Shown piece after piece: positions 1 to 3,000 of a stretch of 64,000 nt of DNA. The position numbers were made by a program, and so were the translations under genes. Under the pieces are notes generated by a model. It did no database searches, was not told where the DNA came from, and worked only from the letters and a program-made list of their open reading frames with translations. The stretch spans positions 192,001-256,000 of the forward strand of contig CM000436.1 of the NCBI GenBank assembly GCA_000165345.1, read 5' to 3'. Position 1 is the stretch's first letter, and each line of letters starts with the position of its first letter.

Positions 1-3000
1 GCTGAAATAATTATCTCTTTTTCTAATTCCAAATGAAATATTGTACTTGAACTTTTAAAATTAGCATTTTTTCCATCTCTATTTTGAATGAATAATTTAG
101 TCTTTTCTACCATATCTTCAAGTCTTTCAACCTTTAATTTCTGAAAAGAAATAAATTTTTTAACTTCTTCTATATTAATTAAAAAACAATCTTTTGGTAT
201 ATTTTTATCTTGTTGGAAAAAACTGAATAATAAGCTTTTTATATTTTCTTTAAAGTTTTTAAGATTTGGAATATGTAACCAAGGATACTTAAATTTGTTT
301 AATTCTTGGCATTTAACCAAATATGATTTTAATTTAAAAACCAAATTTCTTAATGTTTCAAATAGTAATTCATAATTAACAGAATTATGATCACTTTTAT
401 TATTATTATTAAATTTCAACATTTGAATTAGTAAATATTCAATTGTTGAAATTCTGGTATTTATTAAATATAAAAGATTTAAATCACATCCTGTTAAAAA
501 CTTGAAAGCTTTTTCTAATATTTCTGGTAACAATAAATTTGATAATTCTTTGATAAACATTTCTAAATAATTCATCAAATTATAATTCATTAATGTTTTC
601 AAATCCAATTTGTCCAATACATGTTGTTCAGGCCCTAATTCTGGCATTACTGTCAAAATTGGAAATTCAGCCTTTGTAGCTTCATCACCAGCTTCTAATT
701 TTACCTCTGCTTTTATTTCAGCTCCTGTTCCTGTTCCTGTTCCTGTTCCTGTTCCTGTTCCTGTTCCTGTTCCTGTTCCTGTTCCTGTTCCTGTTCCTGT
801 TCCTGTTCCTGTTCCTGTTCCTGTTCCTGTTCCTGTTCCTGTTCCTGTTCCTGTTCCTGTTCCTGTTCCTGTTCCTGTTCCTGTTCCTGTTCCTGTTCCT
901 GTTCCTGTTCCTTGTTCTGGTCCTGTTCCTGTTCCTTCTGCTTTTGTTCCCGTTTTTATTCCTGTTCCTGGTCCTTGTTCTGGTCCTGTTCCTGCTCCTG
1001 TTCCTATTCCTACTCCTGCTCCTGTTCCTGCTCCTGTTCCTGCTCCTGCTCCCATTCCTACCCCAAATCCTTCAAAATCAAACCTTTCATTCTCGTCAAC
1101 TGAGTCATTGATGTACATCCCAACGCTCATTTCTGTCCTTGAAATCAAATCTCCACTATCTAAATCAAATAATTGTGAATAATCTCCTGAACTAACAAGA
1201 TTATCAAAACCAAACAACTCTAAATTTGAAAGAAATCCATCTTCTAATGGATAACTTGGAAATTCAAATTCCATCAAAGTCGGATGAAATTCCCAACCTA
1301 CAACTCCAGTTGTTATTATCTCTTGCTTTTTATTTAATTGAGATTTTAATATATAAAAAATACCAAATTTAAAACAAAACTTTATTATACTTGAATGAAG
1401 ACTCAAAATTGATGATAAATTTTTTGCTTCTATTAATTCTTCATTTTTTAATCCTCTCTTTAAATTTTCTATCTCTTCAATCTTTTGAATTAATTCCTTA
1501 ATAAAACTTAATGTACAACTTTCTGGTTTAATTTTATCATTACTAGTAAATCTATGTAATAAATGACTTCCATCTATTGTTACATTTTCTTGAAATAATC
1601 CATAACCCCATCTTTCTTGCTTTAAAATATCATTAATACTTTTATTTAATATCAAATTCTCACCTTCTTTTTTAAATGGATCATATTTTTTTATTATACC
1701 TAATCCATTCTCACCTTCTACTCTTAATATACAAGCATATATTGCTTCAAAAAAATATTCTAAAGCTAAAGAATAACCAATCAAAGTTAAAAATTCTTTA
1801 TTATAATTATATTCTAAACTTGAATCTATACCATTCGAATATTTATTCAAAAAATTACTTAAAATCATATTAAATTCTTCTGATAATTTACCATATTTTA
1901 ATAATAAACTTAAATAATTTGTCTCCAAACATGAATTTATATGACCAAATAAATCAAAATTTGATGTTAATTTAAAGAAAACTGATGTTATTTCAATCTT
2001 ATTTAATAATAATCCTTTTTTTATACTTGCTGTAAAATATTGTGGAGAAGGTAATTTTAATATTTTTATCGATAATTCATTTTCATCATCTTTTTTTATT
2101 ATCTCTATCACATTTTCACATCTTCTTATAATATCTTCAATAATTAAAATTAATACAATCAATATATCTTTTAACCTATAATGTAATCTTTTTGTAATCA
2201 TTAATTCATTTTCATTCATCATTTCTTCCAATTTTATATTCTTATAACTTATCTCCTCATAATTATTATTATTATTATTAATACGTTCCTCTAATCTATC
2301 TTGAAGTATTTTTATTTCTTTTAATGATTTTTTAAAATCTATAATTTTCTTTACTGTACAATCCTTTAAACCACTCATATTTATTGAAAATCTTTTTAAT
2401 AAAGTATTTAATATAGCCATTTCAATTTTATTTGCTAAATTTAACAATAATATAATTTCTTCTGAAAATAAATTCTCTATTATTCCAGAAAATAATTCAC
2501 CTATTATCGTTTTATAATTATTTTTAGAAATTTCTTCATCTAAAAATTTATTTATATAAGGAAATTTAATTTTAATACAATTATTTAAAATAAATTGTAA
2601 TAATTCCATATAATACTTTTCTAGTAATATATTTCTTTTAACATTATCAGAATTACAAATTGAACAATTATGATTATTATTCATTGTTATTCCATATAAC
2701 AAAATGTTTCTTTTCTGAATAATTTTATCAATAGATTGATTTCCACTTTTACCATGTAAATGTTTCTTTAATTTAAGTTCTTTTTGATAAAAATTTAATA
2801 ATTCCATACTTTGTTGTTTTTCTTGAATAATTTTCATAATATTCTTAAAATTACAATCTAAAGTTGAATATATATATTTTTCACTTAATAATATCTGTAA
2901 ATTCTCAAATAGTTTTAAATCTGCTCTTAATTCAGAATTTATATCCATTTTTTTAATAATTTCTTTATTTAAATTAATTTTTTGTGTAACTTCTTCTTCA

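Follow-up and report, generated by a model that had tools for sequence, protein, structure and literature searches.

A hexanucleotide array in the putative mucin gene cgd8_700 of Cryptosporidium parvum, probably a coding microsatellite of variable length

A 64,000-nt stretch of Cryptosporidium parvum chromosome 8 (hereinafter the window) contains a long tandem array of the hexanucleotide CCTGTT. The array raises the question of whether such a repeat is translated, whether its length truly differs between isolates, and what it means for the protein that carries it. The evidence favors, with a probability of about 0.88, a coding hexanucleotide microsatellite (VNTR) in a linker of the gene cgd8_700, driven by slippage or exchange, recently expanded in C. 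parvum and polymorphic in length with preservation of the reading frame.

The array begins with 31 CCTGTT units on the plus strand, all of them perfect (186 nt; regular-expression search and period-6 scan), and the uninterrupted perfect period-6 run spans 190 nt (723-912). Tandem Repeats Finder (TRF) reports a single array at 723-1052 with a period of 6, 87% matches and a score of 481; the runner-up in the 64-kb window scores 108. The short units are arranged head to tail, as in a microsatellite or VNTR (31 perfect units, 55.5 copies by TRF). The array is the longest pure repeat within the window, and such a run cannot have arisen by chance in 30%-GC sequence. Degenerate GGA-NNN units (CCTGCT, CCTATT, CCCATT and others on the plus strand) extend it to about 1052-1056, giving a compound array of 31 pure and about 24 degenerate units, ~330 nt in all. 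On the coding strand the unit reads ACA GGA, for Thr-Gly, and the pure tract encodes (Thr-Gly)31. A previous sequence-only reading of the window had the copy number exactly right, had recognized the Gly-Thr array, and had followed the degenerate units to about 1060, close to where TRF and the codon view place their end; its position for the pure tract, 726-911, is 2 nt off. Coordinates are collected in the table.

Table. Features of cgd8_700 and its repeat arrays, in window coordinates
Feature	Position	Strand	Details and evidence
cgd8_700 (CpMuc8/Muc20) coding sequence, putative	3..5099	-	runs off the left window end; 213 further codons lie outside the window
Short (ATT)n run, Asn run KFNNNNKSD	398..412	-	sequence
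Conserved block directly C-terminal to the array	560..723	-	same alignments as for the N-terminal block; flanks identical among C. parvum assemblies
Pure hexanucleotide tract	724..909	-	(CCTGTT)31 on + strand, (ACA GGA)31 coding; regular expression, period-6 scan, codon view, TRF
Degenerate 5' part of the array, GGA-NNN units	910..1056	-	TRF, codon view
Conserved block directly N-terminal to the array	1057..1250	-	alignment of C. parvum, C. hominis, C. meleagridis and distant homologues P0028, P0029, P0031
Second compound array, PN/PT-coding	4258..4352	-	(GGATTA)6 at 4258-4293, (GGAGTA)3 at 4294-4311, degenerate units to 4352; TRF
Third array, period 12 (TACCAGTACTCG x 4.8)	4448..4506	-	TRF
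N-terminal hydrophobic segment, putative signal peptide or signal anchor	5025..5099	-	translation; conserved in C. hominis P0004, P0005

One long minus-strand ORF (window 3-5153, Met at 5099) contains the array, together with a second one. The accession and the gene order, anchored on PKG (cgd8_750), lead to cgd8_700. Global identity to the C. hominis UdeA01 orthologue CUV07614.1 is 0.869, which equals the published identity for the cgd8_700/CHUDEA8_700 pair (dN/dS 0.39), and the protein matched no Pfam family. From these three observations we identify the gene carrying the array as, in all probability, cgd8_700 (CpMuc8/Muc20, a putative mucin). Six C. parvum allele or start-site variants of the protein had no exact match in the protein collection, so the identity is drawn from gene order and the 0.869 fingerprint. 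The myosin, prefoldin and 425-aa proteins encoded in the window match C. parvum Iowa II and IOWA-ATCC entries with 100% identity, which assigns the window to this species.

The gene is 5.7 kb long, and the full protein has 1912 aa for the 31-unit allele, the remainder being reconstructed with assembly L002 (described below). A hydrophobic segment of 20 residues lies at its N-terminus, and a stretch of ~80 aa is rich in S/T/P; judging from the translation and an AlphaFold model, most of the 1912 aa would be helical rather than mucin-like. Indels whose length is not a multiple of 3 sit immediately upstream of the Met (5118-5161), consistent with a translation start at 5099. The gene has been described as a fast-evolving putative mucin (PMC4637869). 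CpMuc8 is also a seroreactive antigen in serology obtained with a cell-free expressed protein array; it belongs to a set of seven antigens tied to protection against reinfection, with which antibodies against it were associated (PMC10425216). This serology lends indirect support to the remark in the sequence-only reading that the locus might matter antigenically if the protein is surface exposed.

We compared four complete alleles, namely the window and assemblies L001 (GCA_048859185.1), L002 (GCA_031892065.1) and L003, the CpBGF telomere-to-telomere assembly (nanopore and MiSeq). At least the window and L003 belong to the IOWA type, and L002 differs from these two very little. The neighboring myosin is identical in all four, and just 4-14 SNPs across 21-25 kb separate them. 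As the sequence-only reading had predicted, copy number differs between isolates: it is 31 in the window, 31 in L003, 30 in L002 and, as assembled, 6 in L001. The further prediction that only in-frame variation would be seen also holds. Specifically, coding indels between intact cgd8_700 alleles are 6, 6, 12, 12, 36 and 144 nt long, all multiples of 3.

The pure tract of 186 nt, and still more the ~330 nt with its degenerate part, exceeds typical Illumina read length, and an assembler could have collapsed or mis-extended it. Assemblies do break here. One short-read Logan contig, L007, terminates within the degenerate part, and in the C. tyzzeri assembly a gap of 299 N takes up part of the orthologous site; Logan short-read contigs stop before or inside the array and yielded no further alleles. 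Away from the array, the L003 gene shows two single-base deletions (window 2954 and 2983) that resemble residual nanopore errors, and the 6-unit allele of L001 might be an assembly collapse. However, 31 units are present in two separate assemblies, the window and the nanopore-plus-MiSeq L003, a third assembly has 30, and the flanks of the array are identical across assemblies. Moreover, an A>C SNP that changes Thr to Pro at the edge of the array is private to L001, which also has five other variants in the cgd8_700 region in common with an independent contig, L004, which define a distinct flanking haplotype. One of these is a 6-nt change in a short PN array that any read can span. Whether or not the count of 6 units is correct, cgd8_700 is therefore truly polymorphic, and we consider it very unlikely that the array or its length differences are an artefact of assembly.

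The same comparisons bear on whether the array is translated at all. If it lay in an intron, or between two genes, the Thr-Gly reading would be meaningless. Repeats without stop codons in six frames produce spurious ORFs, such as 610-1182 on the plus strand, and in L003, C. meleagridis and C. tyzzeri the orthologue is annotated in pieces by some gene callers. But these splits fall away from the array, in L003 at the single-base deletions mentioned above, and C. hominis annotations are translated straight through the site. Both flanking protein blocks share one frame in every species examined, and all length changes are multiples of 3. Genes of Cryptosporidium are mostly intron-free, which also counts against an untranslated array. 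The probability of such an array is close to negligible, and the coding, frame-preserving repeat that had been proposed agrees with the continuous ORF and with flanking blocks whose shared frame is kept in C. hominis and C. meleagridis.

The Thr-Gly tract is accompanied in cgd8_700 by at least four further small arrays that also vary in frame. The second array belongs to the Ser/Thr/Pro-rich mucin-like region. It had been described beforehand as (GGATTA)5(GGAGTA)n from 4262 in the same gene; the array and the gene are correct, while the array actually starts with (GGATTA)6 at 4258. It is polymorphic as well, with 6 versus 5 GGATTA units: L001 and L004 lack one of the units and show a SNP close by, and C. 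hominis lacks 22 aa at this site. At the third array, L004 is one 12-nt unit short and C. hominis is 2 aa shorter. The Asn run has an in-frame TAATAA insertion in L001 and one Asn fewer in C. hominis.

Comparison with other species places the array between conserved sequences. C. hominis and C. meleagridis have a short, interrupted, degenerate linker at the site (A/E/T/G/K) made of the same kind of hexamers, while C. tyzzeri has a different expanded repeat, interrupted by the assembly gap. In distant homologues, alignment shows unrelated linkers of differing lengths between the same conserved motifs. A whole-protein homologue search with cgd8_700 returned the C. hominis cluster only; a repeat-free query of 500 aa gave no hits, although P0001 is 93% identical. 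The N-terminus of cgd8_700 has 29% identity to the neighboring gene (E = 8e-8). Residues 300-1345 match P0028 (E = 1e-131) and P0029 (E = 1e-93); P0029, the one compared directly, is an orthologue of the neighboring gene (E = 1e-120). cgd8_700 shares an N-terminal coiled-coil/CxxC module and a large C-terminal helical domain with the cgd8_660-690 'large low-complexity protein' paralogues. Homologues amount to 5 representatives among 1.84 billion proteins, all of them Cryptosporidium-like sequences, which indicates a restricted family.

Together these observations suggest how the array may have formed. cgd8_700 encodes a large protein specific to Cryptosporidium, which has a hydrophobic signal at the N-terminus and a mucin-like stretch rich in Ser, Thr and Pro. 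The Thr-Gly array occupies a linker of this protein, probably between two conserved helical blocks, and the linker sequence is not conserved across the genus. Copies are probably gained and lost through replication slippage or through unequal exchange in the obligatory meiosis, two routes that sequence cannot separate. Only multiple-of-three changes would survive, because the C-terminal ~450 residues must keep frame. The long pure tract would have expanded recently within the lineage of C. parvum, with another variant expanded in C. tyzzeri. The product would be a length-polymorphic spacer, probably disordered and possibly O-glycosylated. An AlphaFold model of 599 residues around the array, itself a poor model (mean pLDDT 47, pTM 0.30), has no secondary structure and pLDDT of 25-33 over the array and helices on both sides, which is weakly suggestive of a disordered linker.

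Repeat length could instead be selected as a functional or antigenic feature, the (Thr-Gly)n tract being an O-glycosylated, antibody-exposed spacer whose length alters epitope display, immune recognition or domain spacing. This would fit the N-terminal hydrophobic signal and Ser/Thr-rich region of cgd8_700/CpMuc8, its fast evolution between C. parvum and C. hominis (identity 0.869, dN/dS 0.39), and the independent expansion of different repeats at the same site in related species. The third cloned segment, s3, which would contain the array judging from its position in the ORF, is flagged as seroprevalent in one data set (PMC10425216). However, dN/dS is below 1, and neutral slippage in an unconstrained linker can explain all of the observations. 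In particular, 30 versus 31 units in near-identical IOWA-type genomes is the expectation from mutation alone. We regard selection on length as unlikely. A more specific proposal is that the Thr-Gly tract is an exposed, O-glycosylated, immunodominant part of the protective antigen CpMuc8, and that 6 versus ~30 units between lineages, with other repeats in C. hominis, C. meleagridis and C. tyzzeri, contribute to the reported genotype-specific, short-lived antibody immunity; this is quite unlikely.

The preferred reading, a slippage- or exchange-driven coding VNTR, has close parallels in the C. parvum MLVA/VNTR loci cgd8_4840_6355 (MM19, GGAGCT), cgd5_10_310 (MSF) and cgd8_4440_NC_506 (PMC9043402; PMC4591062). 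These come from the same organism, two of them from the same chromosome, have a 6-bp unit, and lie mostly in coding low-complexity regions; like the cgd8_700 array, they combine in-frame copy-number variation with conserved flanks suited to PCR fragment sizing. Unlike them, the cgd8_700 array is compound and long enough to break short-read assemblies. MLVA-grade loci have perfect homogeneous repeats of ≥5 bp, no indels within units and 100% conserved flanks (PMC9043402). Among the four assemblies, the pure tract and its 40-nt flanks conform to this description, but ~150 nt of degenerate units adjoin the tract, and in L001 the boundary carries a SNP.

The array is absent from the validated seven-locus scheme and from the MM5/MM18/MM19/TP14/MS1/MS9 panel. 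Nor does the locus appear in Table 1 of PMC9043402, in Table 1 of PMC4591062 or in the part covered of the locus table of PMC4746124; earlier candidate-marker listings may include it. Identity with MM18, MM19 or TP14 was rejected, their primers being absent from the window. In the open-access literature, the sole Cryptosporidium matches to the repeat 12-mer were to the TP14 R2 primer, a different locus.

The poly-serine repeat of gp60 (cgd6_1080) is the standard Cryptosporidium subtyping marker. Like the cgd8_700 array, it is a tandem repeat within coding sequence; gp60 is a mucin-like glycoprotein targeted by antibodies, as cgd8_700 is a putative one, and the copy number of the gp60 repeat defines subtypes. 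Unlike the Thr-Gly tract, the gp60 repeat is trinucleotide (TCA/TCG/TCT), and gp60 is a small, well-characterized surface glycoprotein. The Thr-Gly tract of Drosophila period likewise consists of ACN-GGN hexamers between conserved regions; it is length-polymorphic in natural populations and thought to be a flexible spacer. There, however, synonymous codons are mixed, whereas cgd8_700 has a pure ACAGGA run, which points to an expansion much more recent than that of the period tract. A PERIOD-type protein was rejected, as cgd8_700 has no PAS or other Pfam domain and homologues only in Cryptosporidium-like sequences. Bacterial contingency loci likewise place a hypermutable tandem repeat in a pathogen gene, there for an exposed protein, which CpMuc8 may also be. 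A phase-variable locus of this kind was rejected because the unit is 6 nt and allelic differences between intact genes are all multiples of 3; in cgd8_700, what changes with the repeat is the length of the protein, and expression is not turned on or off.

Though of an ordinary kind, this coding microsatellite is real and could be of use in typing strains. The sequence-only reading expected its two arrays to form a highly informative subtyping locus, a value that the four complete alleles make possible at most. Outbreak tracing of C. parvum relies on gp60 and a few VNTR loci, and discriminatory markers are wanted. Even IOWA-type genomes that are nearly identical differ at this array, and the 5.7-kb gene contains four more small arrays that vary, so a single amplicon or long read could give a haplotype across several arrays. 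Because short-read assemblies break or gap at the array, typing based on whole-genome sequencing will miss the locus and annotations of the antigen gene will be fragmented. Since cgd8_700 is one of the seven protection-linked antigens, knowing which of its parts vary in length would be useful for vaccine-antigen design. Such a repeat is an expected feature of a secreted protein in an AT-rich apicomplexan.

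The main array of cgd8_700 contains 31 perfect CCTGTT units at 724–909, as determined by regular-expression matching and a period-6 scan, within a perfect period-6 run of 190 nt (723–912). Tandem Repeats Finder (TRF) reports a single array at 723–1052 (period 6, 55.5 copies, 87% matches) with a score of 481, compared with 108 for the second-highest score in the 64-kb window. Degenerate units extend to ~1056. The sequence-only reading had given the exact copy number, placed the units 2 nt off at 726–911, and followed degenerate units to ~1060. The coding-strand unit of the pure tract is ACA GGA, encoding (Thr-Gly)31. 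The second (PN) array, previously read as (GGATTA)5 from 4262, is present but starts at 4258 with one more unit. As had been proposed, it lies in the same gene: both arrays share one minus-strand open frame, from 5153 to beyond base 3. Elsewhere in the window, TRF also reports (TTA)10 within the ORF of a DEAD-box helicase, and repeats of 21, 18 and 12 nt in or close to the AP2 gene.

Repeat features and the orthologous assembly gap (window positions unless a contig is named; L002, C. parvum; L006, C. tyzzeri)
Feature	Position	Location	Description
Array 2	4258–4293; 4294–4311; to 4352	minus-strand ORF	(GGATTA)6, then (GGAGTA)3, then degenerate units; TRF and sequence
Array 3	4448–4506	minus-strand ORF	12-nt STGT unit
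Asn run	398–412	minus-strand ORF	AAT repeat
C-terminal array, outside window	L002 21555–21671	cgd8_700	18-nt period, CTGGTGCTGGTGCTGGTA x 5.9, Gly/Ala/Thr/Val-rich
C. tyzzeri 299-N gap	L006 17249–17832 (GCA_007210665.1)	exactly in orthologous array	GGAGCAGGAACTGGAACT-type units either side, apparent 1-nt dropouts
Other TRF repeats	29104–29133, 30985–31025, 32586–32636, 33291–33319		

Long ORFs without introns crowd both strands of the window (G+C 29.9%; ~180–240 kb of C. parvum chromosome 8). The neighbours code for a myosin heavy chain, cGMP-dependent protein kinase, AP2 protein, coatomer alpha, Glu/Gln-tRNA synthetase and proteasomal ATPase. Exact look-up gave 100% identity of the myosin, prefoldin and a 425-aa protein to C. 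parvum Iowa II and IOWA-ATCC entries. On gene order and the identity match with its C. hominis orthologue, the array-bearing gene is assigned to cgd8_700. Specifically, the C. hominis UdeA01 counterparts of the target, myosin and the 425-aa gene are CUV07614.1, CUV07615.1 and CUV07620.1, and these accessions, together with the gene order (target, myosin, 114-aa gene, MOLO1, prefoldin, PKG, 425-aa gene), put PKG at _750, in agreement with its published identifier (PMC7262579). The full-length C. parvum protein has a global identity of 0.869 to CUV07614.1, equal to the published value for cgd8_700 and CHUDEA8_700 (PMC4637869 supplement). cgd8_700 is a fast-evolving putative mucin (PMC4637869), named Muc20 or CpMuc8 in the literature (CpMuc8: PMC10425216), and antibodies to its product have been linked with protection from reinfection (PMC10425216). 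By gene order, the large gene on its other side, homologous to the distant homologue P0029, is assigned to the ‘large low-complexity protein’ cgd8_680_90. Exact look-up gave no match for the C. parvum version of the cgd8_700 protein, unlike the proteins of its neighbours. With a 500-aa non-repeat query, the word-indexed search did not recover an orthologue of 93% identity, and its negatives are unreliable for AT-rich apicomplexan proteins.

Contigs encoding an identical myosin led to three chromosome-level C. parvum assemblies and to short-read contigs. The array flanks are identical in all C. parvum sources. The array has 31 ACAGGA units in the window and in L003 (GCA_035232765.1, CpBGF nanopore+MiSeq T2T assembly), 30 in L002 (GCA_031892065.1), and 6 in L001 (GCA_048859185.1), which also carries an A>C change at the array boundary, in line with the length polymorphism predicted between isolates. 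Because these assemblies differ by only 4–14 SNPs over 21–25 kb, the array ranks with the most rapidly changing features of the region. The shorter repeats vary as well: the PN array has 5 units in L001 and in a further contig, L004, versus 6 elsewhere; L004 lacks one 12-nt unit of array 3 (~4498); and TAATAA is inserted in the Asn run (~412) of L001. Beyond the window, 36-nt and 12-nt indels occur in the C-terminal low-complexity region, namely a two-unit (36-nt) deletion of L001 in the 18-nt-period array and a 12-nt indel nearby.

The main array defeats short reads. The 6-unit allele of L001 could thus be an assembly collapse, given that the short-read Logan contig L007 ends within the degenerate part of the array (11 contigs are similar) and that the orthologous site in the C. 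tyzzeri assembly is interrupted by a gap of 299 Ns; however, its private boundary SNP and a flanking haplotype shared with L004, distinct from that of the window, L002 and L003, argue that the allele is genuine. The one-unit difference between 30 and 31 and the short-array changes are robust.

Translation likely starts at the Met codon at 5099. Directly upstream, indels between assemblies at 5118 and 5161 are not multiples of 3, and such poly-A/T differences support this start; downstream, intact alleles (L003 aside) differ by multiples of 3 only, as expected from the claim of frame preservation. The sequence-only observation is confirmed, and its interpretation supported. Differences that shift the frame are confined to L003, with two single-base deletions (one A each, window 2954 and 2983), which split the gene into 709-aa and 1195-aa calls and are probably residual homopolymer errors of the nanopore-hybrid assembly. 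Assemblies otherwise differ mainly at homopolymer tracts; poly-A/T length differences that are not multiples of 3 are found at 5118–5161 and at 5500–5880, in the spacer between cgd8_700 and the myosin gene.

The 31-unit allele encodes 1912 aa, with 213 codons beyond the window taken from L002. The N-terminal part contains a hydrophobic segment, a coiled-coil with Cys pairs, and a Ser/Thr/Pro-rich stretch of ~80 aa holding arrays 2 and 3. After a further ~1050 helical aa comes the Thr-Gly linker, followed by ~300 helical aa, a Gly/Ala/Thr/Pro low-complexity stretch and a conserved C-terminus. No Pfam family matched the protein. In an AlphaFold model from a shallow alignment, poor overall (mean pLDDT 47), the array has pLDDT 25–33 and no secondary structure, with helices on either side.

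In C. hominis, the corresponding position holds interrupted ACAGGA/ACAGAA/ACAAAA hexamers (53 aa, TETGTK…), just two of them pure units, and isolates of this species differ there by a 4-aa GVGI indel. C. meleagridis has a comparable A/E/T/G/K stretch of ~45 aa. In C. tyzzeri, the position is taken by an expanded repeat of GGAGCAGGAACTGGAACT type with Thr codon ACT, not ACA, and the gene is annotated as small fragments only (65, 169, 455 and 50 aa). More distant homologues, including P0031, carry unrelated Pro-rich or acidic linkers. In all, the linker is flanked by the same conserved motifs, …LFGFD.L…Y..LFD… and …PEQ.VLD.LDL…, spaced 68 to 119 residues apart in the distant homologues. The main domain matched only five representatives among 1.84 billion proteins, indicating a family restricted to Cryptosporidium-like organisms. 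The neighbouring paralogue group, of cgd8_680_90 type, includes P0028 and P0029 (direct comparison for P0029 only). The MM18 inner forward primer matches L001 25414–25436 with 3 mismatches, in a large paralogue downstream of cgd8_700 beyond the window’s left end, over the conserved motif SGGFVPPLTD, also present in P0028 and P0029. The MM18 marker probably lies in this (cgd8_660-type) paralogue family.

Together, the comparisons show that the repeat is pure, lineage-specific, length-variable and frame-preserving, and sits in a linker without conservation between species. Replication slippage or unequal meiotic exchange would add or remove units, out-of-frame products would be purged by selection because the conserved C-terminal domains need translation, and the linker, being probably disordered, would tolerate any length. 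Since it is rich in Thr and part of a secretory protein, it may carry O-glycosylation. The repeat might have an adaptive role in diversifying the antigen. The gene has a dN/dS of 0.39 (PMC4637869 supplement), and neutral slippage accounts for all observations.

The locus is absent from the validated seven-locus MLVA scheme and the MM5/MM18/MM19/TP14/MS1/MS9 panel (PMC9043402, PMC4591062), and from the table entries of the eleven-locus Spanish scheme in the accessible portion of PMC4746124. Identity with MM18, MM19 or TP14 was ruled out, their primers having no match in the window. For Cryptosporidium, the open-access literature has a 12-mer of the repeat in the TP14 R2 primer alone, a primer for another chromosome-8 gene. 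The TP14 nested reverse primer (GTACAGCTCCTGTTCCTGTTG; PMC4746124, PMC11812112) matches exactly at 17 of its 21 bases at the array 3’ edge (window 719–735); the mismatches are its first three bases and the terminal one. The cgd8_700 array could thus cause mispriming or stutter in assays of TP14, another chromosome-8 locus. The feature is a coding VNTR of an ordinary kind, located in the low-complexity linker of a secretory protein from an apicomplexan; its host gene is of some immunological interest, and the array brings both practical value and pitfalls for typing.
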